DNA of 45,941 nt from a virus (IMGVR_UViG_3300022217_000002:1-45941), one strand, 5' to 3'; positions 3,469 through 45,941 are shown, numbered from the stretch's first letter. Translations and numbers: made by a program. Notes: a model not told the origin generated them from the letters alone.

Positions 3469-6400
3469 CTACGGGAACGCGGGGGCGCGTCGCTTGGGCG
3501 CGGAGGGTCTGCGCCGAGAGCGGGAAGAACTTCCGCGCTGCAAGGCCGTCTTCCTGGGATCGGGCCTGTACTTCCTCAAATTATCCACCTTGCCGTAGCG
3601 GACGGCCTTGGCTTCGTCGGCACTGACATCCATCCCGTCCTTTAAGATGGCCTCAATCTCGTGGTCTTTCAGGATCCCGCCGAATGCGGTCTGGGCGTTT
3701 TTGAACACGCCCTCGGCCTTCTTGAGGTATTCATACCGCTTGGCCTGTCCAAGGCCGGCGCTCTTGTCCAGGTAGGCCGTAGAGTCGCCCAGGTTGCGCA
3801 ATGCCTTCTCTCGCATCGAAACCATGCCCTTGCTGGCCCTGAGCGCGTCACGCAAGCCAACAACCTTGTTCCTGACAAGTATGGAGGCTTCGTTCTTGTC
3901 GATGCCGTAGGTGCGTGTTGGGTTGGCAAGACTGGTCCAGACCTCGCGAACCGAACGATAAGGAGTATAGGTTCCCGCCCTCGGTTCAACATCCCCCGAT
4001 TGTTTCCGGCCAATGGCTCTTGTTTGCGTGACCTTCGGGCCAAACTGGCCGCCGAGTACATCCAGGCCCAGATTGATGGTGGCCTCCCTTATGATTTCGC
4101 TCTTGCGCGGATGTTCTCCGACAAGCACGTCCTGTATGCCCGTGCTCTTGTAGTCGCCGCCGAGGGAATCGCCGGTAAACCATTTATAAAGGGCGGAGGG
4201 ATACATGCCCGGACGGAGGGGGTTGATCTTGTCCCGCCACACTTGCTTCAAAACATTGGCGGGAGCCTCGATATCGCTTTCCTCGGCTTGCAGGGCACCG
4301 TATATCATGTCTTCAAGAGGGAAGGCGCTGTTGCCGCCAAGAGCCGTGTAGAAGACCGCCCTGCCGCCGTCCTTCTTGGTTTCCTCCCACACTATCAAGG
4401 GCGCGTCCTGATACCAATCCGGCATGAATTCGCGCAAGGCCGTCTGCCTGCCCCCGTCCTCCAGCAGTTCAACCTTGTCGATTTCGTCGTCATCGTCCCT
4501 GATGGCCTGCTGAATGGCAACCCAAGCCCCTTTTAGGCCGGTCGATATCAGGGCTATCTTGCCCGTCCGTCGCAGGGTGTCGATGGATGCGGAGGTCGTC
4601 AGGCCGACCATCGGAACGAAATCCCCCTTCTTGGCACTGTCCATCGCATGCCTGACCTGATTCGCCCTTATGCGGATCGAATCAACGAAATACCCTACAT
4701 AGTCGGTAATGCCGGTTCTGGACAGGCCGTGCGTGAATTCGGGAACGCTTTCCGGATTCTGGTAGAACTTGCGGACGTGTTCGACCGCTTGGGCCTCGGT
4801 CATGCCCCTATCCAGGGCCGACCAGTACGCCGCTATTTTTGTCGGGAAGTCGATTATGGAGTAAAGCTCCATGGCTCTCTGGAACTTTTGCCCCGCCCAA
4901 TTGCGGGGATCTGTCGTCAGGAGGTTCAACACCTCTTCGGCCTGCGTGTTCCCGCGAAGGGAGAAGACGCCTTTTTTGACCAGCTCGGAAACCTCGCGCA
5001 GAGCTTTCGGCTTCCGGGCGACAAAATCCCCGGCCAGCGCGTGCGCCTTCCTGATGTTTTTGCCGTACCCCTTCCGCAAGGCGTCGCCACTGCCAACGGC
5101 GAATCCGACATAGGCTTCCGTATAGTTCCGGCCAATGGTCTTCGGACCAAGGAGCTTCAATCCCCGCATGACACCCATCGGTTTGAACCACAGGTTCGAC
5201 CTAATCCATCCCGGCTTGGTGCCGCCCGTGACGGCGTCGTGGAGTTCCTTGGTGACATACTTGCCGGCCAGCTTCCCATATTTCATTTTGTCGGCGGGAT
5301 TTGTGGCCTCGCCCAATGGAACCTCTGTTCCGGCCTCCCTTGAGCGAAAGTCTGTCCAGACCTTTCCCCTCCCGTTCCGTGCCAGCAGATTGAACATTGT
5401 CATGTTGGCAATCAGCAGTTCCTGCGACTCGATGGTTTTGGCGGCAGCGAACTGCGGATCGGTAACCTCTTGATAGAGGACGCGGAACGCACCTTCGAGG
5501 AAGCGTTTCTTCAAGTTACTGGTGTCGATAGCGCCCCCGCCGGCCTGCTCGCGGTTCAAAAAGTAATCCACGGTGGACTGCGCGGCGTCCAGCAGGGCGT
5601 CGGTATTGGGTTCGACCCGCACGTTTCCGTCTTCATCATATGCGATGGACTCAATTACCTGGCTTAGCTTATCGAACTTATTGGCGACGCGCTGAATCTG
5701 CTCTCTTCTGGAATCACTCATGCCCTCAAGCATGGTAGCGTCTCGGGTTTGTAAATATCCGACAATGTCGATGGTCGTGCGCCGCTGCTTGCCCCTGGCT
5801 TTCGTTGCGGATTCCACGAGGTTCTCAAGGGACTCTTCAATCCCGGCCTGAATCTCCATCACAGCCGCGTCGTAATCCTCCTGCTTTGGAACGAATTCAT
5901 CACCAAGCAAGTGCTTCAAGTAGAAGCGCGACACGTAGTAGTCGTTTTCCGCCACTTTCGCAACGAGGTCGGCAGGGGCTCCCTGCTCTTCGAGTAATTG
6001 GGCCAGACGCTGGCTATTGGCCCTGCGCTGAATATTAAACCCATTTAGAGCCCGCACGGCGATATGATCGCGAGGCAATCCGAATTCGTTGCGGAATTCA
6101 TCAATGGTTTTTTCTCCATAGACGACATCCTGCATCCATTGGCCGACCTTCTGTTTGTCGTGCTTTTTGATTAGCCGCGCTCTAGCCCTTTGGAAGTCCT
6201 GCCTTGTTGCCTGCCCGACAAGTTTGGCGGCCTCACGGGCATGCTTGCGTTCGATTGTAGAGGCGTGGGTGTCGGCATCCATTCCACGTGTGCGCGTAAA
6301 CTTTCGACGGATCAAACGTCCGGCCTGCCGGACAATGCGGGACGCCCCAGCCCGGTCCGGGACACCGACGTATCCCGCCTTGCGCAGTTGTCGGGACCGC

Positions 6401-8463
6401 TCTTCAAGGGCGGGGTCCGCTCTTTGCGACTCATCTGTGCGCGGCAATTCGGTTTGCGACTCATCCGCCGCCGTTTGTGAGACACTAACCGTCTCAACCT
6501 CTTCGGCCTCCTTATAGCGGCGCAACTGGTCCACTACCGCCTTCTCTTGCTCTGGCGACAAAATGGGGGTACGGTCCGGATGTTCCCTCGATTGCCTTAG
6601 ATGACCCTTTAGAAATCGCCGGAGATGTTCAATGTGGGCCTCGCGAAATGTCTGATCGCCTTCCATCGCGATATTCCCACCCGTTTCGGAGACGCGGATC
6701 GTATGAACATCGCCCTCCTCGGTCGGGAACACTCCGCCGTAGACCGCCCCCACCTCTTCGGCTGCCGTCTGAACCTGCTCTTTACTGGATTTGTTTGTGG
6801 TCCGCGTGCCCTCAACGGCATAGACCCCGGACGGTGCGGGAGTCTGCGATGGAGCCGCCGCTTCTTCCTTCTGGGCAGGCCCTTGCTCGCTCCAGAACTT
6901 CTTATTGAGCGTCCGGGTCTTGTTGGGGCCGGTGCTGATCGTAACGGTGTTTTCATCTTCCGTGACAAACTCGCCCCTGACAGTGGTCTTCCCATCATCC
7001 ATAACAAAGGTGCGGACATTCGTTCCTTCAACATCTGAGGATGTAGAAGGCTGAACAGCTCTCGCGGATTTGGGTGGTTTGGCGGAATAGGAGGAAACCG
7101 CCTCATCTGGCGTCGGTTTCGCGATGGGCTGTTCAGCCTGTTTAAGCTCTTCGGTTGACCGGGACTTCGCTTCCTTGACCGGCTGCCCCCGATCATCTGA
7201 GACGACCTCTTGCTCCAGGGTAACAGGGCGGCCTTCGGGGGTCGTGACTCCGGGCTGGACAACCTTTTCGGTGAGGGGGGACTCTTTTGTCTTAGCGGCG
7301 GCCTGTATTTCCTTGTCAGCTTCTGGAGCTTCTATTGTTGGCGATCCTTCAACGGCACCCTTTTCCTTGGCTTGCGATTGAATAGCGCCAGCCTCTACCG
7401 GCAACCCGAGGGTCGCCATAAGTAAGCCTACGCCGGCCCCCTGCTTGAACGATTCCCCAAGATTTTCCCCCTCTAGCCCGGCGCGAACCCCCTGTTCACT
7501 GGCGATCTGTTCGGCCATCTTCTTTTTCATGTGGTTGGAGATGCCGCCTTGGCCCAGCTCTTCCAGCCCTTCCGATATGCCGCGTGGCAAGATTTTCAAA
7601 ATCTGCTTGAACGCCCCGGTTTTCTTGAGTGCATCAATAGTGGCGTCCTGCGCCTGCGTTCCTTTCAGACCCTTGAGCCACCCCTTCAACTGGTAGGCAT
7701 TTGAAGCGTATTCAACCGCGCCGGAAAGCATGCCGTATTTGGCCGCGTATTCGCTCGCGTACTTGTCGGCGGTTTGCTCATCAAGGCCCGCCTTTTTCAG
7801 TTGCTCGAAGGTTTCCTTGTAGAACGCCGCGCTTTCGTTGGCGGTCATGGCCGCATAGCCCGTGTACGCCCCCGCCGGACCACCCAATGCAGAAGCCGCC
7901 GCTGCCTCAACCATAATAAACGCGTTCTCGGCCAAGCCCAACAACGGGCTTGAGGAAGGGATCTCCTGCCTGAACCTGTTTACGTCCTCTTCCCACTTCT
8001 TGGTAGAGCCGGTTACCTTGTCGTAGAACTGCAAGGCTTTTTGCCGCTGCTGAAACGAGCGTTGGGAGGCTTTGTCGGCGTCTGCGCGTAACGCCGTGTC
8101 TTCAGGGTAGCGGTCCGCCAATTGCGCCAGAATCTCTGCCTCGGACATTCCGCCCGCAATCTTTGCGTCGCCGAATTGCGACAAGCCCAAGCCGGCACTA
8201 CCAACGCCTTTCGTCGTTCCGACAACTAAGGCTTTACCTGCGGTTCCAAGCGTCTCCAAAGCTGCGCCCGGAAGCTCTTTCATAACGCCCATCGCCCCGC
8301 CCGGAGAAGACGGCTCAAAAGGGGCAGGAGTCGGCTCAAGGCGAGCAGGAGGTGGCCCCAAGATGCCTTCCACCGTCGAAGCCGGATCTTCGGGCAACGG
8401 GCCCAGAACATCCTCGATCCGTTTTCGAGGCGGCGGCCCTAGAATGCTGTCAACAGTGGGCAT
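3469..8463 (-). CDS. Large 1664-aa protein, probable internal virion / DNA-ejection protein
   Basis: Long ORF at the end of the morphogenesis block with Ala/Gly-rich helical segments; function inferred from position. Confidence 0.7.
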   Translation of the reverse strand: MPTVDSILGPPPRKRIEDVLGPLPEDPASTVEGILGPPPARLEPTPAPFEPSSPGGAMGVMKELPGAALETLGTAGKALVVGTTKGVGSAGLGLSQFGDAKIAGGMSEAEILAQLADRYPEDTALRADADKASQRSFQQRQKALQFYDKVTGSTKKWEEDVNRFRQEIPSSSPLLGLAENAFIMVEAAAASALGGPAGAYTGYAAMTANESAAFYKETFEQLKKAGLDEQTADKYASEYAAKYGMLSGAVEYASNAYQLKGWLKGLKGTQAQDATIDALKKTGAFKQILKILPRGISEGLEELGQGGISNHMKKKMAEQIASEQGVRAGLEGENLGESFKQGAGVGLLMATLGLPVEAGAIQSQAKEKGAVEGSPTIEAPEADKEIQAAAKTKESPLTEKVVQPGVTTPEGRPVTLEQEVVSDDRGQPVKEAKSRSTEELKQAEQPIAKPTPDEAVSSYSAKPPKSARAVQPSTSSDVEGTNVRTFVMDDGKTTVRGEFVTEDENTVTISTGPNKTRTLNKKFWSEQGPAQKEEAAAPSQTPAPSGVYAVEGTRTTNKSSKEQVQTAAEEVGAVYGGVFPTEEGDVHTIRVSETGGNIAMEGDQTFREAHIEHLRRFLKGHLRQSREHPDRTPILSPEQEKAVVDQLRRYKEAEEVETVSVSQTAADESQTELPRTDESQRADPALEERSRQLRKAGYVGVPDRAGASRIVRQAGRLIRRKFTRTRGMDADTHASTIERKHAREAAKLVGQATRQDFQRARARLIKKHDKQKVGQWMQDVVYGEKTIDEFRNEFGLPRDHIAVRALNGFNIQRRANSQRLAQLLEEQGAPADLVAKVAENDYYVSRFYLKHLLGDEFVPKQEDYDAAVMEIQAGIEESLENLVESATKARGKQRRTTIDIVGYLQTRDATMLEGMSDSRREQIQRVANKFDKLSQVIESIAYDEDGNVRVEPNTDALLDAAQSTVDYFLNREQAGGGAIDTSNLKKRFLEGAFRVLYQEVTDPQFAAAKTIESQELLIANMTMFNLLARNGRGKVWTDFRSREAGTEVPLGEATNPADKMKYGKLAGKYVTKELHDAVTGGTKPGWIRSNLWFKPMGVMRGLKLLGPKTIGRNYTEAYVGFAVGSGDALRKGYGKNIRKAHALAGDFVARKPKALREVSELVKKGVFSLRGNTQAEEVLNLLTTDPRNWAGQKFQRAMELYSIIDFPTKIAAYWSALDRGMTEAQAVEHVRKFYQNPESVPEFTHGLSRTGITDYVGYFVDSIRIRANQVRHAMDSAKKGDFVPMVGLTTSASIDTLRRTGKIALISTGLKGAWVAIQQAIRDDDDEIDKVELLEDGGRQTALREFMPDWYQDAPLIVWEETKKDGGRAVFYTALGGNSAFPLEDMIYGALQAEESDIEAPANVLKQVWRDKINPLRPGMYPSALYKWFTGDSLGGDYKSTGIQDVLVGEHPRKSEIIREATINLGLDVLGGQFGPKVTQTRAIGRKQSGDVEPRAGTYTPYRSVREVWTSLANPTRTYGIDKNEASILVRNKVVGLRDALRASKGMVSMREKALRNLGDSTAYLDKSAGLGQAKRYEYLKKAEGVFKNAQTAFGGILKDHEIEAILKDGMDVSADEAKAVRYGKVDNLRKYRPDPRKTALQRGSSSRSRRRPSAPKRRAPAFP

Positions 8464-12260: not shown

Positions 12261-13664
12261 CTACGGCCTCCGCAACCCCTGAACTCCATATTGCCCATTG
12301 AGCTCCAAGTCGTATATGCGTGAAATTTCGTTAGAACCAAGGGAGCGATTGTAGAGATAGACGTTATCCACGCTTGCGGGGTCGAGCTCCCCACCATCAT
12401 AGGCACCGATGTAAACCAACCCGGTGTAATCAAAGTCCGAAGACACGTTGGTTGTGTAGATCCGGGACCCGTTATAATAAGCGAAGATATCTGCGCCATC
12501 CATAACAAGGCCGACGTGCATCCAGTTGGTTTGCGCCGACTCCGCCACTGAATGGGCGTGCTCTGCCGTTACTTGAGCAGCGCCATCCCAGGTGTCTACC
12601 GTATAGGTCAACTCCTCGGTGCTGGTATCGAGATATAGAACGACTTCATCTTCACTGTCGATAAGTCGGAAAAACCATACTCCGCCGCCTGCTCCGGTAA
12701 GATTGTTCGCCTTAAACCACGTTGAGATGCTCCAGTTTGTAAGCGTGCTAACCGATGGAGAGGTAATGCCGGCGTAATTGCCGTTCGAGTAGGTCAGATA
12801 GTTGCCCCGCACGTCATTGAAGCCGATATAGGCCGCACCGTTGTTGGTTGAGACGTGCCCGCCCCACCAGTCATTGGTCATATATCCGTCAAACGGGAAC
12901 GCAATTATTAGTTCAGATGGATTAACGGGATAATATACGGACCCTCCGCCGCCACCTCCTGATTGGGCCGCCCAAGATATCCCTCCCGCCCCATCAGCCG
13001 TTGGAACATGCCCGGATGTCGCCGACCCAGAAACAAGGTTGGTAACGTCGCTCGCCGCGACAACTGCCTGTGAAATATTGGTTACGGCCTGCGCGGACAG
13101 CATTTCGTTTGTGGCTCCCGCTATCGCAGTCTCATATGCAGTCGTTAGGCCGTTGGAAACAGTTGTATCCGAAGCCGTGTACGCAGTTGTTATCCCATTC
13201 GAGGCGGAAGTGTCTGCCGAAGTGAATTCAAGAACCAAGCCGTTCGAGACAGCGGTGTCGGCCAGCGTATAGGCTGTTGTTACGCCGTTCGAGACGGCGG
13301 TGTCTGCCGAAGTGAACTCAAGAACCAAGCCGTTCGAGACGGCGGTGTCGGCCAGCGTGTAGGCCGTTGTCATGCCGTTCGAGACGGAAGTGTCGGCCAG
13401 CGTGTAGGCGATTGTGTAGGCCACTGCCAAGGTGTTACTCAAGACGGCGTCGGCAACTACGAAAGCGTTGCTGGTGGAAGAGTTGTTGGCCGCATTCGCT
13501 ACGGTGTTCCAAGTATTCGTGTTGGTCTGTAGCGTATTTTCATTGATGTTCGTGCGGTAATACCCCCATGGAGCCCCATTTGTGATGGTTACCAAATCAG
13601 CGAACGCCAAAACGGGAAGCAGGGCCAGGCAGCCCGCCAGTAATCCAATTCTATTTGTTTTCAT
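12261..13664 (-). CDS. Signal-peptide protein with repeat stalk and C-terminal LamG/concanavalin-like domain (fibre/adhesin-like)
   Basis: Signal peptide ending AFA; repeats TAYTLADTAVSNG; LamG motifs WSISTWFK, WMHVGLV, YYNG and DNVYLYNRSL. Confidence 0.8.
   Translation of the reverse strand: MKTNRIGLLAGCLALLPVLAFADLVTITNGAPWGYYRTNINENTLQTNTNTWNTVANAANNSSTSNAFVVADAVLSNTLAVAYTIAYTLADTSVSNGMTTAYTLADTAVSNGLVLEFTSADTAVSNGVTTAYTLADTAVSNGLVLEFTSADTSASNGITTAYTASDTTVSNGLTTAYETAIAGATNEMLSAQAVTNISQAVVAASDVTNLVSGSATSGHVPTADGAGGISWAAQSGGGGGGSVYYPVNPSELIIAFPFDGYMTNDWWGGHVSTNNGAAYIGFNDVRGNYLTYSNGNYAGITSPSVSTLTNWSISTWFKANNLTGAGGGVWFFRLIDSEDEVVLYLDTSTEELTYTVDTWDGAAQVTAEHAHSVAESAQTNWMHVGLVMDGADIFAYYNGSRIYTTNVSSDFDYTGLVYIGAYDGGELDPASVDNVYLYNRSLGSNEISRIYDLELNGQYGVQGLRRP
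13210..13389. repeat. Two tandem 90-bp coding repeats made of 45-bp subunits
   Basis: Near-identical copies start at 13210 and 13300; degenerate units flank both sides. Confidence 0.85.
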
Positions 13665-21390: not shown

Positions 21391-21690
21391 TTAAAAATCG
21401 TCTTCGTCTAAATCCTGCATGGAAACCTGCTCAGCACTGTCTTCGAGAGGCGCTTCCGCATTTCCTATGTTCTGGATGTCGGCCATGCACGCGAGGTAGC
21501 CCCGGCGGAAGGAATCGTTCACGCCGCGTAGGATGTTGGTAACGAGATAGCCGTTGAGCACGGCCACCAGTTTCAGGAACGTCGGGGACTTCACCAGTTG
21601 CTTGACACTCAGGGCGTCTTCCTGATCCCACTCAACCCTCGCGATCCGGACAACCTTCAGGGGATGTCTTTTCTTTTTCCTAAAGCGCAC
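21391..21690 (-). CDS. Small hypothetical protein after portal
   Basis: GTG start with GGAGG SD, overlapping the portal end. Confidence 0.6.
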   Translation of the reverse strand: MRFRKKKRHPLKVVRIARVEWDQEDALSVKQLVKSPTFLKLVAVLNGYLVTNILRGVNDSFRRGYLACMADIQNIGNAEAPLEDSAEQVSMQDLDEDDF

Positions 21691-23533
21691 CGGCAACCTC
21701 CGATCCGAGTTGCAGGGCCTGATCGACCCTCTTGGAATTCTGCTCGACATTGGCCGCAAGCTGCTCGACCTGCTGCTGGAGTCTCATCAGCACGGGCGCG
21801 ATGGGCAGTTCCCCGCTGTTCGGGTCGGGATAGAGGGTGTGGGCCAGGTTCGTATCGACCTTCTCCGTTACGCGGCGCAGCCCCGCGCCTATGTCGGCTC
21901 CAGTGACCTCCGCATGTTCGGCGTTCATCTCAATGATTTCGCGATCCTTGATGAACTGCATATCGGGGTTGAGCGTCTTTTCGCTTGCGGCGGGCACGAT
22001 AAGAAAGCGGTGTTTGTAGATGTCGGCGGGCATCATGCCCTCAAACTTCAACCCGGCTCCGATCATGGGAAGTTCGGTGCCCATGCGCCTGAGTTCGTTC
22101 CAGAGCATGGGGAAAAGCTGGCGGTCGGCGTCGTTGAAACGGTCAACGCTGGCGCTGGACACGGTATCGCCCTTGGCATTCTCCGACTTAACCTCGGTCG
22201 CCGTCTTTTCGAGCTTGCGGCTGGAACTGACCTCAGCCGAATACGTGCCCGCCCCGGAAGCCGTTCTTTGCGAGGCCAAGCGCCGCTGGTAGTCGTTCTC
22301 GAACGCGAGCTCCGCCGTGACGGGCTTCATGGTCACTGGCTTCAAGCCTTCGGGCAGCACAGTGCCGGGTTTGACGGTGACGTTCTGCTCGTTGGGGGTA
22401 CCGGTGCCCTCGAAAACGGGCATGGAGGCATAGTCGAGCTGGATGAGCTTGCCGTTTTGGATCGCGGTCGCGATGATTTGGTTGTCCATGCACGTGTGGC
22501 CGATGCCCCGGCTGTCGTACCACAGCAGCGAGCGGTTTTCGTAGCGGTGCTGGATATAGGGCCAGGGCTTGTCCCTGCCCCTGACTTCGCGCACAACATC
22601 GGGCTCGCGAGAGTCGAACTGCGCGCTCCGCATTTCGGCTTCGAGTTCGGCCCCCGCCAGATTCTCGAAGGTGCTGTCCTCGCGCCATGCGACTATGTGC
22701 AGGAGCTCTTCCGGACAGTCGGGGCAGACGGTCGAAACGCACTTGTCGCCCAAGCCGACGATGCCGTTTGATTTTTCAACATCCCATTGCGTTGCATAAT
22801 GGCAGATTTCCCAAACCACTATCTTGTCGTTGTCAACATCGGAGGTGTTGAGCCCGATCAACGCCTTCGTAACCGTAAACGTGTTTTCATCGTCGTGGTC
22901 CGATGTCGCGACCCGCTCGGTGCCCTCGGAGTCCTTGTGTACGAGCTTTTTAGCAACGGCGGCCACGGCCTTGCGGTTCCAGCCGCCGGTCTTGGGCTTG
23001 TCCTTGAACTCCCGCAATGAAAGCCGCATGACATGCGTGACGCGCTCGGCCCTGCGGATGTCCGTGGTGCGGGGCGGAACAATCAAGTCCTTGGGGTCCA
23101 CCGTATCGAAACTCGGGATGACGCCCCATTCGTCGGTATTCTCGGTAATCTGCTTCGTGATGGCGAAGCCGCGAGCGTTTTTGGTATCTACCGCCACTTC
23201 TTTTTTCTGGCGATAGCCGCACATGTGCCGCAGATAGGTGTTGAATCCCTTCTGCGCCATCGTCGTGTAGCTGGCCGGAACGTCGCCCAGCGGGATGAAG
23301 ATCGCCACCACCGGCGCATTGAGAATCATGCTGATTTCCTGGTCGGTCTTGTCGGTGGCGAGGTCGTTGATGATGGGATCAACGGTGTTCGGCGCGCCCT
23401 TGTAGGGCTTGTTGCGCTTCTTCGGGCGCTTGCCCAGACGACGGCCCAGAATGCCGTCGTCCTTACGGTTCCATTCCTGTCGCGCCTGTAGATCGGCGTC
23501 GGTGTCCGCGAGATATGGGCAGGAGGATTGCAT
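21680..23533 (-). CDS. Portal protein
   Basis: 617 aa after TerL; KPYKGAPN, VDPKDLIVP, SRGIG and KTATEV motifs typical of P22/T7-type portals. Confidence 0.85.
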   Translation of the reverse strand: MQSSCPYLADTDADLQARQEWNRKDDGILGRRLGKRPKKRNKPYKGAPNTVDPIINDLATDKTDQEISMILNAPVVAIFIPLGDVPASYTTMAQKGFNTYLRHMCGYRQKKEVAVDTKNARGFAITKQITENTDEWGVIPSFDTVDPKDLIVPPRTTDIRRAERVTHVMRLSLREFKDKPKTGGWNRKAVAAVAKKLVHKDSEGTERVATSDHDDENTFTVTKALIGLNTSDVDNDKIVVWEICHYATQWDVEKSNGIVGLGDKCVSTVCPDCPEELLHIVAWREDSTFENLAGAELEAEMRSAQFDSREPDVVREVRGRDKPWPYIQHRYENRSLLWYDSRGIGHTCMDNQIIATAIQNGKLIQLDYASMPVFEGTGTPNEQNVTVKPGTVLPEGLKPVTMKPVTAELAFENDYQRRLASQRTASGAGTYSAEVSSSRKLEKTATEVKSENAKGDTVSSASVDRFNDADRQLFPMLWNELRRMGTELPMIGAGLKFEGMMPADIYKHRFLIVPAASEKTLNPDMQFIKDREIIEMNAEHAEVTGADIGAGLRRVTEKVDTNLAHTLYPDPNSGELPIAPVLMRLQQQVEQLAANVEQNSKRVDQALQLGSEVAGAL

Positions 23534-23623
23534 TGCCCCCGCAAGTACGCAGGGGAACGCTTTTTGTCAACCTGTTGTATACGCGACGCACCCTGTTGTA
23601 TATCTTTGGGTTGCCTTGCTTCC

Positions 23624-25195
23624 CTAGCTCCCGGCCTCCCACCCGTGCCCGAAACCATCGTCCGACACCTCTTCTTTTTGCCTCCGGAATTCGTCCATGT
23701 ATTCCTTCACAGTGCCGCAGAGGCTGTGCCCGCTGCCCTCGCCCTTCCATGCGCGGGCCCCGGCGAAGGGCTCGTGGTCGATCAGCAGCCCGACAATGGT
23801 TTCCAGGCGGTCGGGGCTATCCTCCTGCCTTTCCCTCCGCGCCTTTTTCTTGTCCTCCAGCGAAATAAGGTTGCTGTCGTCGTTCTTCATGGTGTAGCGC
23901 CTGCGGCGCATTTGCCTGTGCAGGACATCGTCAACGGGCAGGATGATGGCGTGGTCGGACATGAGCTCCTTGAGCTCCCAGTGAAGTTCGGTGATTCTGG
24001 TTTTAAACAAGGTGCTGTTGATGGCCCCCGCCCCGAAGTTCACGCGATGCACCCTGTAGCCGCGCCGGTTCATTTCGTTGATGATCTGCGCCCCAAGTCC
24101 GCCGTTGTCGCAGTAGATGTCCTGTCCGTCGAGGTTGTGCGCCTTGAAGAGCCTGATGTATTTCGCGGCGGTTTCACTGGGCGGGGTGTGGCTGTCCGTG
24201 TTCCAGGCCACGATGGGATGGAACCTGTTGCCTTCGCGCAGGCCGAAGGTCAATTCGTCCCCGCCCCCGGAAAGGTCGCAGAACGCCTTGCGCCGACCCG
24301 GTATGTGGGGAATCAACCCGCTCTGGCATTCTTGGAGCGCGAGCATGTCGGCATCGGTGAATATCATGTGGTCGCCGCTGCGGAAGAATTCGGCCAGCAG
24401 GATCGAGCGGACAATGGGGTCGTTCGGGCCCTTGTTCTCCAGCATCGCCATCTTGCGCTCGTAGGTGTGGCCTATCAACAGGTGGGGGCAGTCCGTCCAG
24501 GGTATCTTGAACTCGATGTGCCTGCCCTTCCACACGCAGCCCGTCGTCCAGAGCCCGTCTTCGTTCATACAGGCGTCGTAGTGCCCGCCCGTGTCCTCCC
24601 CGCATGTGCTGATGCGAAGCTCCGCCGTTGGGTTGCAGCGTTCTATCGCGGTATAGATGTCGGACTTAATGGACTTGGCTTCGTCGGTGATGATAAGCAG
24701 GGGGCAGAAGCGTTCGTTTCCGTTTTCATCCGTATAGACGCGGTTGTGGAAGCCCTCGAAGGTCTCGCCGCTTCGCGTGGCGAAACACACGATTTCCGAA
24801 CGCGGCAAGCCGTCCTGCGGAGGCGCGTAGATCGTGTTGCCCGTCTTCTTCCAACCCCTGCGCCTCGATATCATGTTCTGGAACGAGGGTATGAGCTGCT
24901 TCTCGAACTGGCGCTCCGAAGCCGAGGTGACAACGACCTGCGATCCCGGAAACGCTGCGGCCCACGACAGGGCGAGGACGGGAACGCACACACTCGTTTT
25001 CCCGCTCTCGTTGCACGTCCTGACGGCCACCATCGCACCCGGACGCCAGCACGCAACCCATATCGCCTGCTGCCAGTCGTAGGGCGTGAAGGGACTCCAG
25101 TCGGCGGCCTGCACAACCGGGCCATTGCTCATGTCGAACAACACCTGGTTGATGTCGGCGGGCTTGACTATCCTGCCGTCTTCGCGTGAAAGCAT
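23624..25195 (-). CDS. terL: Terminase large subunit
   Basis: PYDWQ Q-motif, Walker A CNESGKTS, Walker B LIITDEA, nuclease motifs CDLSGGGD, CDNGGLG and SPDRLE. Confidence 0.93.
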   Translation of the reverse strand: MLSREDGRIVKPADINQVLFDMSNGPVVQAADWSPFTPYDWQQAIWVACWRPGAMVAVRTCNESGKTSVCVPVLALSWAAAFPGSQVVVTSASERQFEKQLIPSFQNMISRRRGWKKTGNTIYAPPQDGLPRSEIVCFATRSGETFEGFHNRVYTDENGNERFCPLLIITDEAKSIKSDIYTAIERCNPTAELRISTCGEDTGGHYDACMNEDGLWTTGCVWKGRHIEFKIPWTDCPHLLIGHTYERKMAMLENKGPNDPIVRSILLAEFFRSGDHMIFTDADMLALQECQSGLIPHIPGRRKAFCDLSGGGDELTFGLREGNRFHPIVAWNTDSHTPPSETAAKYIRLFKAHNLDGQDIYCDNGGLGAQIINEMNRRGYRVHRVNFGAGAINSTLFKTRITELHWELKELMSDHAIILPVDDVLHRQMRRRRYTMKNDDSNLISLEDKKKARRERQEDSPDRLETIVGLLIDHEPFAGARAWKGEGSGHSLCGTVKEYMDEFRRQKEEVSDDGFGHGWEAGS

Positions 25196-25951
25196 TTAAG
25201 AAGGCTCTCCGTATAAAATGGACTTTAATGCGGGGTGGCCCCGCTCTTCCAAGACTCTCATCATTCGCCTGCGACCGGGGCGGTACAATAGATGGGGACA
25301 TTCCTCCCACGAAACCGTCATGGATTTCCACAGCGGCGATTTCACGCGCCGATCGAGGCTGTCGTTTGGAGCACGGCTTGTCCCTAGCAAGACCATGATG
25401 CTGAGGGGATTGATCTTGTCCAGAACAGCATACGTGGCCTCGCTCACCGATTGTGCGCTATCGACAATAACCATGATGGGCGCGAAACGTTCGTTGCCTC
25501 GACAGTCCCTGTAAACTCTACTGCTAAAGCCCTCTAGCGTGTCGTGACTGTGCACCGCCGACAGGAAGATTATCTCGCTTTCCGGCAGCCCGTCTACAGA
25601 CGGAAGATAGAAGGTATTGCCACGCATTGAAACATGAGGGCCAACCGAGTTTTCAAAAGCAGGAACGGCCTGAGAGGCACGCTCATGCTCAGATGGTGAA
25701 ACAACAACGACTTGAGAACCGGGGTGCAGGGCAACGTGAATCAGAGCCAAGCCGGGCACGAGAACACTTGTTTTACCAGACTCGAAACACGTAGATACCG
25801 CAACCATGGCACCGAACTCTTGGGACCAAGCAAGAATGGTCTCCTGCCACTTATATAGGGGTTTCCCCCATAGAGGTGCTGCCGGTTTCGTGGCGGACGC
25901 CGCCAAAACCGGAACAGCCGACAGCATTGCGTTAAAGTTTCGGCGCTTCAT
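25196..25951 (-). CDS. Degenerate paralog of the TerL ATPase domain
   Basis: Collinear with the TerL N-domain (GAMVAVSTCFESGKTSVLVP vs GAMVAVRTCNESGKTSVCVP); Walker B is DS rather than DE; no nuclease domain. Confidence 0.85.
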   Translation of the reverse strand: MKRRNFNAMLSAVPVLAASATKPAAPLWGKPLYKWQETILAWSQEFGAMVAVSTCFESGKTSVLVPGLALIHVALHPGSQVVVVSPSEHERASQAVPAFENSVGPHVSMRGNTFYLPSVDGLPESEIIFLSAVHSHDTLEGFSSRVYRDCRGNERFAPIMVIVDSAQSVSEATYAVLDKINPLSIMVLLGTSRAPNDSLDRRVKSPLWKSMTVSWEECPHLLYRPGRRRMMRVLEERGHPALKSILYGEPS

Positions 25952-26109
25952 TTCCGCCCCTCTTTCTTCCTCCCGAATACCCGGTCCCAGTTGCGGGCAA
26001 ACTCCTCTTCACCAACCCCGCTGGGCCGGCGATGCAGGCCCTTGCCAACACGGTCGGCATAGTATCTTTTCTTCGGATCCCTTATTCCCGGATCAAGGTT
26101 GGTTCCCAT
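25948..26109 (-). CDS. Small phage protein (GKG..RP...F..NWD..F type)
   Basis: GKGLHRRP...EEFARNWDRVFG; stop overlaps the next ATG. Confidence 0.6.
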   Translation of the reverse strand: MGTNLDPGIRDPKKRYYADRVGKGLHRRPSGVGEEEFARNWDRVFGRKKEGRK

Positions 26110-26665
26110 TTCCAGACCCTCCCTCCCCGCCCCCTTCGCGGACCAATTCATCCGCCAGCCGCATCAGCGTAACGAAGTAATCGACAACTCTGGCGCGGCT
26201 GCACTGGCCGTTGGTTTCCTTCCAGTACGCGACAATGCGGTCCACCGCCTCCCACGCCTCCGGCAAAAGCACCAAGTCCTTGTGTACGAGACTGAATTGC
26301 CCCCTCTCGCGGGGCGGAATAACCGGAATCCTTCCGCCCAAACGCTCCAGACACCCGTCCACGCACTCGTGCAGGCCCCGCGTAAAATATCCCTGATACT
26401 TCTTCGGATCGGAGGGCAGCACGCGCTCGATTATGAAATCCACGTTTTCCGACGACAGATGCGCCTTCGCCCTCCTGCGGATGCGACGCCTGTTGGTCCC
26501 GTCCATGTTCTCCCACTTGCGCGGACGCAACGCGGGATCCAGATACTCGTACTTGGGACACCCGCCCTCGACCGTCCGACGACGGCCCCGGTAGCCGCAG
26601 GCCTCGTTCGCGCACCAGTGGCAACGGTGCAGCCTCTTCGTGTCGATTGAAGACGAGTGCCCCAT
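26093..26665 (-). CDS. Hypothetical protein with Cys-rich N-terminus
   Basis: 190-aa ORF in operon; CHWC...C...CPKY. Confidence 0.6.
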   Translation of the reverse strand: MGHSSSIDTKRLHRCHWCANEACGYRGRRRTVEGGCPKYEYLDPALRPRKWENMDGTNRRRIRRRAKAHLSSENVDFIIERVLPSDPKKYQGYFTRGLHECVDGCLERLGGRIPVIPPRERGQFSLVHKDLVLLPEAWEAVDRIVAYWKETNGQCSRARVVDYFVTLMRLADELVREGGGEGGSGNGNQP

Positions 26666-26674
26666 AACGCGCCG

Positions 26675-27049
26675 CTAGTCTTGGTCTCCCCCACCTTCGG
26701 TCTCCGCCGCCGGGGGGGCTGCGCCATCCACCGCCGCATACAGGATGTCGAAGACCTCTATCATATGCCCCCTGCTGCCGGGTTCGGGCGTGCGGATGCC
26801 CTTCGGGTCCATCAATTCCAGGGCCTCGCCAATCGCGGACAAGGCATTGGAATCAACACCCTCTCCGCCCGATTCGCCTCCACCCCGGCTTTCCAGTTCC
26901 TCTATGCGGTCCGCCGCAATCAACAGCTTGCCGGAAATGACCTTGGCATCGTCTTCCGACACCGTCGCCTCCGGCACGGACTTCGCAGCCAGCCTCAACT
27001 CCTCGACCAGCGTGATTTCCCGCTTCTCTCCCTTCTCCCTTTTTCCCAT
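26675..27049 (-). CDS. Hypothetical protein
   Basis: AAAGGAG SD; AADRIEELE motif common in phage proteins. Confidence 0.65.
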   Translation of the reverse strand: MGKREKGEKREITLVEELRLAAKSVPEATVSEDDAKVISGKLLIAADRIEELESRGGGESGGEGVDSNALSAIGEALELMDPKGIRTPEPGSRGHMIEVFDILYAAVDGAAPPAAETEGGGDQD

Positions 27050-27076
27050 GGTGCTTCTCTCCTTTGGTTAGGGTTG

Positions 27077-27301
27077 CTATACGATTCCAGACAATGCTTC
27101 CTTCAAAAGTTCCACCGGCCTCTTGGCAGCGCTCATACACCTCGCACAGGGATTGATTGAAAATACGGCGTTCTCCGTGAATGCAGAGTTTGATGTGAAT
27201 TTCGATTTCTGATTGTCGCACTCCAAGAGCGCACCGCACTCGCTACACTCAAGTTTAAATGTCAGTTCTGTTCTCATACTGGTTCCAACCATCTCCCTCA
27301 C
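27077..27301 (-). CDS. Small zinc-ribbon-like protein
   Basis: CSEC...CARC. Confidence 0.55.
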   Translation of the reverse strand: MREMVGTSMRTELTFKLECSECGALLECDNQKSKFTSNSAFTENAVFSINPCARCMSAAKRPVELLKEALSGIV

Positions 27302-27310
27302 ATCCCCCCT

Positions 27311-27553
27311 TCATTCCCTCACATCCCCTGTCGCACACCCCAACGGTGCCCCACTTATCCGGGGATAGCACCTAACTGCGTTCCCATACATGAAAACCAA
27401 ATTGCAGCACTGCGCCTCCACATCAACCCCAGCTTTCAAATTCAACTCCGCAACACGCCCCAACATGTCTTCAAAACACCAAACCCTCGACGGCCCCGAG
27501 ATAACACCCCAGCTCCCTCCACCAGGAAATTCGATTATCTTGCCGCAACTCAT
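27311..27553 (-). CDS. Hypothetical protein
   Basis: 80-aa ORF filling the operon gap; weak support. Confidence 0.4.
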   Translation of the reverse strand: MSCGKIIEFPGGGSWGVISGPSRVWCFEDMLGRVAELNLKAGVDVEAQCCNLVFMYGNAVRCYPRISGAPLGCATGDVRE

Positions 27554-27613
27554 TGCCCGCCTTGTGTCGCTTGTTCGTTCCAGCTAAACCCGCCCAGTTG
27601 GGGGATATATATA

Positions 27614-28336
27614 TTAGTGATCTGCGCCGGGGGGGTGCCCCCCACCTATAGAGGCGTCCCCCGCTCCACCACCAACGGACACCCCATCCGTAGCACTGCC
27701 CTCTGTACATTGAGCCACATTGCAGTACTCAACCGTATTGTCCTCAAACGTGATGGAGATCCGCGCCAGTCCCAGCGCGCGAACCAATGCCTTTGCCACC
27801 TTGCGCAAGCCGTGCGTCTGCATCAGCACACGGGCCGGGTCCTCGCCGTAGAGGTGGCAACGTGCGAGGACCGCGCACACACTGGCCGGGTCTACAGCCT
27901 CGTTTGGATCGGGCTGGGCTGCGTGATGCGCCAGCAGATCCTTGCACGCCTTGATTGACTCCGCATCCCTGCCGTGCTGCGCGATCCACTCCAGCCGCTC
28001 GCGGATGCCATCAGGCGTGCGGACATCAAAGACCGGCGGCGGAATCCGTCCTCCTATTTTTCGGGTGGGCGCGCCGTCGTCCACGTTGTTGCTTTCGGGT
28101 TTCGCGGTTGTTTTTTTATTGTTTTTCTTTTTAAGAGGGTTTTGACACAGCTTTCCATTGTCTTCTCTGAGCTCTGCGTTTCTGTTTTTGGCTCGGGTGG
28201 CGGTTTTCCGGACGGTGGGCGTTGGTTTGCGTTTTGATTTGGGCTTCGGCATGAGGGGTTTGGCATGGATTGATTGGGCCATGTCCGCCGGGGAGAGGTT
28301 GACAACCTCTGTGTCAGATGTTGGCGTTACAGCCAT
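27614..28336 (-). CDS. Terminase small subunit candidate
   Basis: First gene of the packaging block; basic N-half and ERLEWIA...ESIKACKDL helix pattern. Confidence 0.5.
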   Translation of the reverse strand: MAVTPTSDTEVVNLSPADMAQSIHAKPLMPKPKSKRKPTPTVRKTATRAKNRNAELREDNGKLCQNPLKKKNNKKTTAKPESNNVDDGAPTRKIGGRIPPPVFDVRTPDGIRERLEWIAQHGRDAESIKACKDLLAHHAAQPDPNEAVDPASVCAVLARCHLYGEDPARVLMQTHGLRKVAKALVRALGLARISITFEDNTVEYCNVAQCTEGSATDGVSVGGGAGDASIGGGHPPGADH

Positions 28337-28932
28337 GGTGTGTGTGATAGATCAGGATCTTACACCGTGTCAAGACCGGAGGGCAGGAATCTATGTGTGT
28401 AGGCCATGCCGGAACTGGCGAGAGCCAGTGAGCACTGGCCTGCCTCGCGGCGAGCGTGCGGGCGGCTGCCGATGCGGGTTACCTGGGCTCGGGGCGCTGG
28501 GATCTGTCTGGTGAGGTCGTGTTGAGGCCCACGAATGTCCGCCACGCCCGCTGCACCGCGCAAGCGGCGCATCGCTGAACTGCTCAATAGGCCGCTCAGA
28601 CGGTGTGCCCTTGGGTGAATTGGCGCGAGCAAGTCATGCCAAGCTGGAGTTGTCAAGCACAAAGTTACAATTTACGTGTTATCAAGGGTTTGTGAGGGGA
28701 ATGAACTTGTTAAGGATGGGGCGGTTGAGGAGCGGGAAAGGGGGCAAGGAGGGGTGGTTAAGAAGGGGATGGGCAGCGGGGTTTAAGGACTGTGGTTATT
28801 GGGTGGAGTTGAGTTTATGGGGGTGGCTGGCAATATTTTTTCGGGGGCCGGAACTTTGTAGCAATCCGTTGGGTGCGAAGAGGTTTGGCGTTATTAAACA
28901 AGGCCGTCATGGACGAAAACCCAAAATAATCG

Positions 28933-30886: not shown

Positions 30887-31189
30887 ATGGATAATAAAGC
30901 AAAGGGAGATGCGGCGGTAGAAGTAGAACCGAAAGATGTTTGGTGGTGTGAAACCTGCAAAACCAAAGAAGAACTAAGCCGTGATGAGATGATGGAACAC
31001 CTTAGATCAGAACATGGTTTAGACACTAAGAATCTGACGGGGACTCGCTCAATGGTCATGCACATGGATGGAGATACGTGGTTCAGCTATGTGTGGTCGT
31101 GGAAGTTTGAAACCGAAAAAGGTGAAGTTTTTTTACGGAATGAAACGCTACAGCCCCGAGCAATGGATGACATGATGCGATATACCTAA
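30887..31189 (+). CDS. C2H2 zinc-finger-like small protein
   Basis: AAGGAGG SD; CETC...HLRSEH. Confidence 0.7.
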   Translation: MDNKAKGDAAVEVEPKDVWWCETCKTKEELSRDEMMEHLRSEHGLDTKNLTGTRSMVMHMDGDTWFSYVWSWKFETEKGEVFLRNETLQPRAMDDMMRYT

Positions 31190-31250
31190 CGCCACGGATC
31201 AGGGGCGGGTGCCCTTATATCAAATTGATACAAATTGATATGGAGTTGAT

Positions 31251-31478
31251 ATGAAAGAATTTTGGGAAAACAAAGACGGGGTACACCTCGTGGGCAGATC
31301 AGTCCAGAGCGGGGGCGAGTTTACCCTTTGTGGCGACTCATTCGATATCGCTGGCACCGAGAGTGACTTCGAAGCTGGCGAGCTTGTCAAAACATCAAAG
31401 TCGCGCTCCATGATCTGGTTAGCCATGCCTGCGAACGCTGCAACGGAGATGGGTATTACCTTTGCGAGCTTAAAATGA
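31251..31478 (+). CDS. Hypothetical protein, probably chimeric
   Basis: GGAG SD; reads through an attC half-site at 31401-31424. Confidence 0.45.
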   Translation: MKEFWENKDGVHLVGRSVQSGGEFTLCGDSFDIAGTESDFEAGELVKTSKSRSMIWLAMPANAATEMGITFASLK

Positions 31479-43448: not shown

Positions 43449-43593
43449 TCAGATAAATCATTTCGCAAAGGACCTGAACCGGCTGGTTGATCGCTACGCG
43501 ACGGAGTACGACTTACCTTTGGCGGCGGTGATAGGAACGCTTGAGATTAAGAAACAGGATTTAATCAATGAGCACGATGATGACTCGGAATAA
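43435..43593 (+). CDS. 52-aa cassette ORF (not in ORF track)
   Basis: MKTTDQINHFAKDLNRLVDRYATEYDLPLAAVIGTLEIKKQDL...; stop abuts the attC core. Confidence 0.6.
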   Translation: MKTTDQINHFAKDLNRLVDRYATEYDLPLAAVIGTLEIKKQDLINEHDDDSE

Positions 43594-43667
43594 ATCCAAC
43601 GCTACGGATCAGGGGCGGGTGCCCCAAAAGGAGACTTATGAAACAACCTAAACACGCGACGGGGCAC
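43594..43667 (-). repeat. Partial attC-like site
   Basis: One arm is nearly identical to the arms at 31188 and 44092; GTGCCCC/GGGGCAC stem present, outer partner arm missing. Confidence 0.6.
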
Positions 43668-43940: not shown

Positions 43941-44145
43941 TTCTTCGGTTAGGCAGCAGCTTAACGCTGCAATGATCTCTGAGGCGGTGTTCATAGCCAT
44001 GTGCAGCAAAGAAGGGCTTGAGACCACCGATCAAATCAACGCATGTCGTAGGGTGATTATGAACCTCTGTAATCGGATCGAAAAGAAACAGAACGTCCCG
44101 GATCAGGGGCGGATGCCCGAAAAGGAGACTTATGAAACAAACTGA
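43831..44145 (+). CDS. Cassette ORF
   Basis: Starts in one attC loop and ends in the next. Confidence 0.55.
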   Translation: MNEMSGATCDTLRRLGRCPEKEKREPLPVESPSAGSVSSVRQQLNAAMISEAVFIAMCSKEGLETTDQINACRRVIMNLCNRIEKKQNVPDQGRMPEKETYETN

Positions 44146-44187
44146 AAACGTCGCGGGGCAGCCGTCCTCTGAAGATGCTTGTTCTAA
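44088..44187 (-). repeat. attC-like site
   Basis: AAC..TCAGGGGCGG.TGCCC pairs with GGGCA.CCGTCC(T)CTGA..GTT; SD and ATG in the loop. Confidence 0.75.
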
Positions 44188-45814: not shown

Positions 45815-45941
45815 TTAGGAATCCGCCGCTCTGTCCAACTGAGCTACCGGGGTATTTATTAATATATTACACTCCCGCCTAGATATATCCCTGTTTTCCT
45901 AGCGATATCCGACATTGTAATATCTTGGTGTAATTTTCGCT
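45815..45941 (+). repeat. Terminal direct repeat, right copy
   Basis: Identical to 1-127. Confidence 0.95.

Follow-up and report, generated by a model that had tools for sequence, protein, structure and literature searches.

A nuclease-less, probably inactive copy of the TerL ATPase domain encoded directly upstream of terL in a sediment phage

Terminase motors are usually treated as homomeric rings of the large subunit, TerL, aided by the small subunit, TerS. The window analyzed here, a stretch of viral DNA of 45,941 nucleotides, encodes a complete TerL (P0002) and, directly upstream of it, a shorter protein (P0001) related to its ATPase domain. P0001 resembles the ATPase domains of the window TerL and of the TerL proteins of P74-26 (4zni/4znl), Sf6 (gp2; 4idh) and T4 (gp17; 2o0h/3cpe) in predicted fold and by homology, and shares with them the Q motif, the GKT of Walker A, the aspartate of Walker B and the CPHL motif. 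It differs from them in that the nuclease domain and the C-terminal tail are missing, and in that the catalytic glutamate, the lysine that follows it and the serine of motif III have been replaced. P0001 further differs from TerL by its signal-like leader and by evolving several times faster.

Full-text literature searches did not reveal any account of a TerL-ATPase copy that is catalytically dead and lies beside an intact terL; the sole related item was the vs.8 protein of phage T4. The excerpts available from a jumbo-phage overview (PMC7824862) and from a herpesvirus packaging review (PMC13595911) likewise contain no mention of such a copy. In the excerpts from Evans et al. 2026 (PMC13601566), vs.8 is presented as an uncharacterized stand-alone protein with homology to the T4 terminase's ATPase domain, with Walker A and Walker B conserved. 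Like P0001, it is encoded by a small gene separate from terL, is related by homology to the terminase ATPase domain of its own phage, and is taxon-restricted and uncharacterized, but it retains both Walker motifs (PMC13601566), whereas P0001 lacks the Walker B glutamate. When P0001 was used as a tblastn query against 50,697 phage records, no match was found at E 1e-3, and we therefore do not consider it a member of the vs.8 family. In T4, vs.8 presumably does not adjoin gene 17.

Another arrangement that has to be considered is a split terL, as in the Parabacteroides phage phiPDS1, where, according to the excerpts from the report on that phage, TerL is split and not duplicated (PMC10773633). 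In both cases an ATPase-only terminase ORF adjoins another terminase ORF, but in split forms the two ORFs are halves of one enzyme, whereas the neighbor of P0001 is a complete TerL of 523 aa with Walker A and Walker B. Because this neighbor is complete and has an active-type ATPase domain of its own, the short gene is an extra copy. P0001 also resembles TerS, in its position directly upstream of terL and in its presumed non-catalytic role in the terminase; however, the folds are unrelated, and a separate, weak TerS candidate is located 1.7 kb upstream.

The window is a complete virus record from a sediment phage, with direct terminal repeats (bases 1–127 are the same as 45815–45941). The gene set includes an integrase, an anti-repressor, a RecT-like protein, an exonuclease, RusA, a replication initiator and a Mom-like protein, and the virus looks like a temperate tailed phage. 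A long late operon occupies 3469–28336 on the minus strand and is nearly devoid of family matches in PHROGs and Pfam; the main features of its packaging region are listed in Table 1. All three stop codons are used as stops (TAG in 14, TAA in 10 and TGA in 8 of 32 genes). Matches to the RecT-like gene, considered as a pointer to the host, were scattered across unrelated hosts, and the nearest deposited relatives of the window TerL, from Akkermansia phages, are only 29% identical, too distant for naming a host. Over the region 21600–28400, three more runs of sediment or estuary origin, belonging to other studies (X3, X4 and X5), contained near-identical fragments of this phage at low depth; no RNA run with the phage was listed. 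These fragments showed no difference inside 25196–25951; the listed differences cluster at 26492–26693 and at 27330.

Table 1. Features of the terminase region of the window, with positions counted from its first nucleotide.
Feature	Position	Strand	Description
Portal candidate, 617 aa	21680..23533	-	Downstream of TerL; phrog_332, E 1.1e-6; SU10_portal match weak, below cut-off
Full-length TerL (P0002), 523 aa	23624..25195	-	phrog_2, E 1.9e-14; intact NESGKTS, IITDEAKS and nuclease half
Pseudo-ATPase gene (P0001), 251 aa + TAA	25196..25951	-	Nuclease-less paralogue of the TerL ATPase domain
CPHL motif, residues 218–221	25289..25300	-	Conserved throughout the TerLs and the short paralogues
Motif III region MVLLGTS, residues 186–192	25376..25396	-	Leu189 in place of the invariant TerL Ser
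Degenerate Walker B MVIVDSAQS, residues 160–168	25448..25474	-	Asp164 kept; Ser165 and Gln167 replace the catalytic Glu and the invariant Lys
Walker A FESGKTS, residues 56–62	25766..25786	-	GKT kept; TerL-invariant Asn is Phe
Q (adenine-binding) motif LYKWQ, residues 32–36	25844..25858	-	Kept
Leader MKRRNFNAMLSAVPVLAASAT, residues 1–21	25889..25951	-	Signal-peptide-like; pLDDT < 50
67-codon ORF	25948..26151	-	TGA overlaps the ATG of the pseudo-ATPase gene; no family match
TerS candidate, 240 aa	27614..28336	-	Position and weak tblastn similarity; no direct family match

The initial annotation had described P0001 as mirroring the ATPase domain of TerL along its whole length, and this was borne out by BLASTP against the adjoining TerL, in which residues 10–249 of P0001 aligned with residues 22–269 of TerL with 99 of 255 positions identical (39%, E 1e-50). 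A search of the phage's own genome with P0001, which begins with MKRRNFNAMLSAVPVLAASA, likewise matched TerL, at 43% identity (E 7e-46). The paired strings picked out in the initial annotation were all located at their positions in the two genes, ECPHLL and DCPHLL within WEECPHLL and WTDCPHLL, and VIVDSA and IITDEA within MVIVDSAQS and LLIITDEAKS at Walker B; Walker A reads FESGKTS in P0001 and NESGKTS in TerL. At the C-terminus, ...LYGEPS of P0001 aligns with ...LLAEFF of TerL, with the end of P0001 falling at TerL residues 269–271, the boundary between the ATPase and nuclease domains. Since P0001 stops at this boundary, it has no nuclease domain, as had been noted, and in spite of the divergence from TerL the frame is open over all 251 codons. 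No repeat linking the two ATPase copies was found at the DNA level.

The gene is closely joined to its neighbors at both ends. Its ATG overlaps the stop codon of the preceding 67-codon ORF (ATGA) and lies behind a purine-rich Shine–Dalgarno stretch, GGGAGGAAGAAAGAGGGG, while its TAA is immediately 5' of the terL ATG, and the GGAG upstream of terL sits within the YGE codons of the pseudo-ATPase gene. P0001 and TerL share one reading frame that is interrupted by a single TAA (25193–25198), and a read-through product would be 775 aa long. The GC content at third codon positions is 0.58 in the pseudo-ATPase gene versus 0.83 in terL and 0.79 in the portal candidate, with a range of 0.44–0.83 over 32 genes.

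An AlphaFold2 model of P0001, based on an alignment of 43 sequences, had a mean pLDDT of 87.2 and a pTM of 0.85. Residues 28–249 were modeled confidently, and only residues 1–21 fell below a pLDDT of 50. When the model was compared with the PDB by Foldseek, the first matches were the ATPase domains of TerL proteins, namely P74-26 (4zni, E 7.8e-11), Sf6 gp2 and T4 gp17, with TMq values of up to 0.72. The best 50 matches listed from BFVD were mostly named as large terminases or terminase-like proteins, about one-third having no name, and the nearest ESM Atlas clusters carry Terminase_6N. The model thus confidently predicts a TerL-ATPase fold for P0001. Pfam gave no match for P0001, and likewise none for the genuine TerL; among PHROGs, phrog_2 matched TerL alone.

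An exhaustive phmmer search with P0001 of 1.84 billion representatives, standing for ≈15 billion proteins, yielded 96 proteins at E ≤ 0.001, most of which were TerLs of ≈500 aa. Three were short homologues: P0006 (235 aa, ending in ...LYGEPA), P0003 (225 aa, ...LYGEIA) and P0013 (253 aa, ...IFGEFA). All three stop two residues past the same GE, at the domain boundary, and the frames of the four short proteins are intact at pairwise identities of 26–36%. Word-indexed protein searches added no further short member.

The matches also included proteins of other kinds. Seven (P0023, P0024, P0025, P0033, P0035, P0048 and P0051) are N-terminal pieces of TerL of 213–347 aa, with DEAKS intact, that stop shortly past STPG with ...AVDP(E/D)-like tails; instead of being fragments from contig ends, these may come from terL genes of another TerL subclade that are split or interrupted. 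P0011, an 884-aa relative of TerL, carries within its ATPase domain an additional ≈350 residues that may be an intein, and P0044 is a giant protein of 7462 aa in which 10 stretches match the ATPase query.

The four short proteins were compared residue by residue with 39 TerL-type relatives, mostly full-length. Three positions that are invariant in the 39 TerLs are replaced in every one of the short proteins: the catalytic glutamate at position 165 (S/S/C/A), the lysine at 167 (Q/Q/P/T) and the motif III serine at 189 (L/G/A/G). The exchange of IITDEA for VIVDSA in Walker B, noted in the initial annotation, thus puts Ser165 where 39/39 TerLs have glutamate. Some of the four also lack other residues that are invariant in TerL (N56, T84, H143 and R179). 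Y33, W35, Q36, G59, T61, D164 and C218-P219-H220 are kept in all four, and the Walker A lysine, K60, in three; P0013 has lost it (GAT), which means that ATP binding is not a requirement common to all the short copies. P0001, P0003 and P0006 are identical at 38 positions, including ESGKT, LYxWQ, VD.A.S and CPHL, and have in common P86, found in none of the 39 TerLs.

Judged as a functional TerL, P0001 possesses the Walker A GK[TS] and the terminase-type ASCE ATPase fold and homology, but neither the catalytic glutamate of Walker B nor the C-terminal RNase H-like nuclease domain. The earlier interpretation as a duplicated, inactive terminase ATPase domain therefore agrees with the fold and homology, with the loss of the catalytic glutamate and two further invariant residues, and with the missing nuclease. 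The pattern of residues kept and lost suggests that the domain in P0001 and its two closest short relatives is still folded and would still bind nucleotide, without hydrolyzing ATP.

We then considered how widespread such pairs are. A second ATPase copy was present in none of 29 other loci from viral and metagenome contigs, nor in the 19 of these with at least 760 bp of sequence upstream of TerL; one locus without it is L014, where 1.6 kb of sequence is available upstream and TerL is 53% identical to that of the window. None of 17 deposited-phage records related to the window TerL contained two matches, and in metagenome contigs the pair was found on the window's own contig alone. With the second copy absent from these related loci (0/19) and deposited records (0/17), the pseudo-ATPase gene is a rare accessory in its TerL family. 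The loci of P0013 and P0006 were not found in viral contigs, and a scan of genome contigs gave no locus. An adjoining short gene and TerL are seen directly in the window alone; P0013 and a full-length TerL of 513 aa, P0099, are both recorded on 45,372 bp from the same sources, from which we infer that they share one contig.

Two trees of ATPase domains were built, one of 34 rows (30 of the 96 matches, the window TerL and three locus translations, with P0011 excluded because of its insert of ≈350 residues) and one of 38 rows, to which four TerLs had been added. P0001, P0003 and P0006 formed a clade (support 99/93 with 34 rows and 99/98 with 38 rows) nested within a ten-row TerL subclade that includes the window TerL (99/99 and 100/100, respectively). 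In the 38-row tree, the clade stood beside P0002, weakly (69/91). P0013 fell into another TerL subclade (100/99), where it paired weakly (77/50) with P0099, to which it is 50% identical (125/248, E 1e-80). The four short proteins came together in none of 200 bootstrap trees, and a single clade of them was marginally rejected by the AU test (p 0.038, log-likelihood difference 38.5). Since P0013 groups with a full TerL that probably shares its contig, at 50% identity, a second origin is likely for the P0013-type copy, although gene conversion by the neighboring TerL could mimic this result. The terminal branches in the 38-row tree were long for the short proteins (0.93–1.54 versus 0.12 for P0002; for P0013, 1.15 versus 0.13 for P0099).

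What the protein does can be approached from its lost residues. Lacking those for ATP hydrolysis, P0001 is likely to work not as an enzyme but through binding, either to the motor or to partners of the motor. We tentatively favor a role in packaging, in which P0001, as an intact and conserved but catalytically dead TerL-ATPase copy, would be a putative non-catalytic binding partner that modulates the terminase. The proteins of the P0001 clade would bind ATP without hydrolyzing it and would be made together with TerL. They might work via their fold and surfaces, for example by pairing with TerL ATPase domains, and such pairing could hold back or organize motor assembly, ATPase activity or nuclease activity. 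The disordered, conserved leader might then be a targeting or docking peptide. The role as a packaging partner does, however, leave the signal-like character and conservation of this leader unexplained, and the optional presence of the gene, its fast evolution and its lower third-position GC content are at least as compatible with an accessory or conflict gene as with a part of the motor. We rank the modulation of packaging first, an immune or conflict mimic close behind it, and export as a minority reading.

A role in packaging also raises the question of the small subunit. For the six ORFs in 25948–28336, no family, TerS or other, was matched at E ≤ 0.001 (PHROGs) or 0.01 (Pfam), and four of them gave nothing above noise at E ≤ 5. 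The 240-aa ORF at 27614–28336 showed tblastn similarity at E 0.04–0.19 to ORFs upstream of TerL in four related loci (L003, L005, L006 and L007). Those of L003 and L006 in turn have weak matches to the TerS family phrog_51, as has an ORF upstream of TerL in L008. These similarities hint at a TerS candidate elsewhere in the operon, and for this reason the pseudo-ATPase may supplement the terminase genes as one more component instead of merely standing in for the small subunit.

The second possibility is that P0001 is an immune mimic or decoy. By analogy with described terminase sensing, a TerL-ATPase look-alike made with TerL might engage host sensors of the Avs1-3 or Upx type, or some other TerL-targeting factor, and blunt or misdirect them. 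According to the excerpts from Evans et al. (PMC13601566), EcAvs2 requires no more of the terminase than its ATPase domain and contacts the bound ATP and Mg, while vs.8, the stand-alone TerL-ATPase-like protein of T4, fits the same pocket and is toxic together with EcAvs2; the authors raise an anti-defense role for such proteins. However, the known stand-alone look-alikes, vs.8 and Ksap1/2, trigger Avs2 and do not block it (PMC13601566). Several properties of the gene would suit a mimic: it is optional and fast evolving, it probably arose on two occasions, the closest TerL to each copy is that of the same genome, and the junctions suggest co-expression just ahead of TerL. The nucleotide pocket of P0001, retained with hydrolysis lost, would be suitable as well, but the missing Walker A lysine in P0013 means that an ATP-loaded pocket is not universal among the short copies, and no anti-defense gene was recognized among the neighbors. 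Taken together, we regard an immune mimic as possible, though somewhat less likely than a role in packaging.

The third reading concerns the N-terminus, which the initial annotation had likened to a Tat signal. The leader of P0001 consists of KRRNF, 17 uncharged residues (best 12-residue Kyte–Doolittle mean 1.82) and ASA. By a crude rule of our own, requiring RR and a hydrophobic stretch and not equivalent to a validated predictor, it was the sole pass among 277 six-frame ORFs of at least 60 aa, and the leader motif was not found in other ORFs of the genome. P0006 starts with MKRRKFNAMM..., matching P0001 at 9 of its first 10 residues (MKRR(N/K)FNAM), which makes the leader the best-conserved segment between two proteins that are ≈29–40% identical overall. 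When the sequences are anchored at YxWQ, the N-terminal TerL motif (HPLxQAxxW type) corresponds to residues 22–31 of P0001, which makes the leader a clade-specific extension in place of the variable, mostly acidic N-terminus of TerL. P0013 has such an acidic, TerL-like N-terminus and no leader, and P0003, as called, also lacks one.

In the TerL family, the N-terminal motif has the form (N/H)xP(L/I/V)xQAxxW and lies ≈10–15 residues before YxWQ, and the C-terminus has a GG(W/Y)xG-type tail. The pseudo-ATPase has kept a remnant of the former (PLWGKP) and has no such tail.

The leader could serve as a Tat or Sec signal, cleaved after ASA (residue 20), that sends the folded terminase-like domain to the envelope. 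In this respect P0001 is like bacterial Tat signal peptides, in which a short basic n-region with RR is followed by 13–17 residues of moderate hydrophobicity and an AxA arrangement. The leader, moreover, lies upstream of the conserved TerL motif, so that a cleaved product would retain the whole domain, and in the model residues 1–21 are not packed against the domain (pLDDT < 50). Unlike typical Tat substrates, P0001 has no match to a signal profile and would carry a terminase-type ATPase fold as its cargo. No family in Pfam or NCBIfam matched the N-terminus of P0001 or P0006, including PF10518 and TIGR01409, which we take to be the Tat-signal profiles; the scans were run at E ≤ 1 (Pfam) and ≤ 10 (NCBIfam) for the whole of P0001 and at E ≤ 10 for its first 45 residues and for P0006, and the HMMER filters may drop matches above ≈0.1. 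The Tat consensus is S/T-RRxFLK, with a hydrophobic residue at position +4 after RR, where both P0001 (RRNFNA) and P0006 (RRKFNA) have asparagine. ATP is absent outside the cytoplasm, the gene is embedded among packaging genes and coupled to them, and the short homologues P0013 and P0003 are leaderless. We therefore consider export improbable. The leader itself is real and is conserved in one homologue, P0006, but it matches no curated Tat profile and is lacking in P0013, the short paralogue of probably independent origin; it may instead be a signal of the Sec type, a peptide for docking or a tag for membrane targeting.

A combination of these ideas appears very unlikely. In this scenario, a dead TerL-ATPase copy with a nucleotide pocket, derived on more than one occasion from the TerL of the phage itself and made just ahead of it, would occupy the sensors, and the strongly conserved RR-leader would route the look-alike and its bound partner to the export machinery and out of the cytoplasm.

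We rejected a decaying tandem duplicate without function, the outcome that the initial annotation had tied to homologues that are absent or evolving neutrally. It is true that catalytic residues are lost, that the terminal branches are long and that the third-position GC content is below that of the neighboring genes, and homologues are few, with four short proteins in a library standing for ≈15 billion. However, three homologues do exist, at 26–36% identity, and their frames are intact and end at the same boundary as the open frame of P0001. The residues that determine the fold and bind nucleotide have been selectively kept, the predicted fold is confident, and the start and stop of the gene are coupled to its neighbors, all of which makes decay highly doubtful. 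Least credible is a read-through fusion, with P0001 as the N-terminal module of a 775-aa protein of tandem dead and live ATPases, as the in-frame arrangement might suggest: a shared frame has a one-in-three chance of occurring, TAA is an ordinary stop in this genome (10/32 genes), the four short proteins all end at the same place, none of the 96 matches is a tandem-ATPase TerL of ≈750 aa, and TerL possesses an ATG of its own, with a GGAG upstream.

A selectively maintained, dead TerL-ATPase paralogue that is coupled to terL and has probably had two origins in one TerL family suggests either of two possibilities. The terminase of some phages may be heteromeric or regulated, or its fold may have been put to a further use as a binding module, directed for instance at terminase-sensing immunity.

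Other parts of the window yielded some minor observations. The late operon contains an ORF of 1664 aa at 3469–8463 on the minus strand without a Pfam or PHROG match at the cut-offs used, and most late-operon genes are likewise without an assignable family. Within a 467-aa ORF (12261–13664), three tandem 90-nt repeats, 66–78% identical to the first copy, occupy 13149–13418 and presumably encode a repeated domain of a tail or fiber protein. Three copies of a motif with CGGATCAGGGGCGG(G/A)TGCCC are found at 31179–31256, 43589–43666 and 44083–44160, two of them followed by AAAAGGAGACTTATGAAACAA, and these look like a repeated regulatory element and ribosome site ahead of small early genes.
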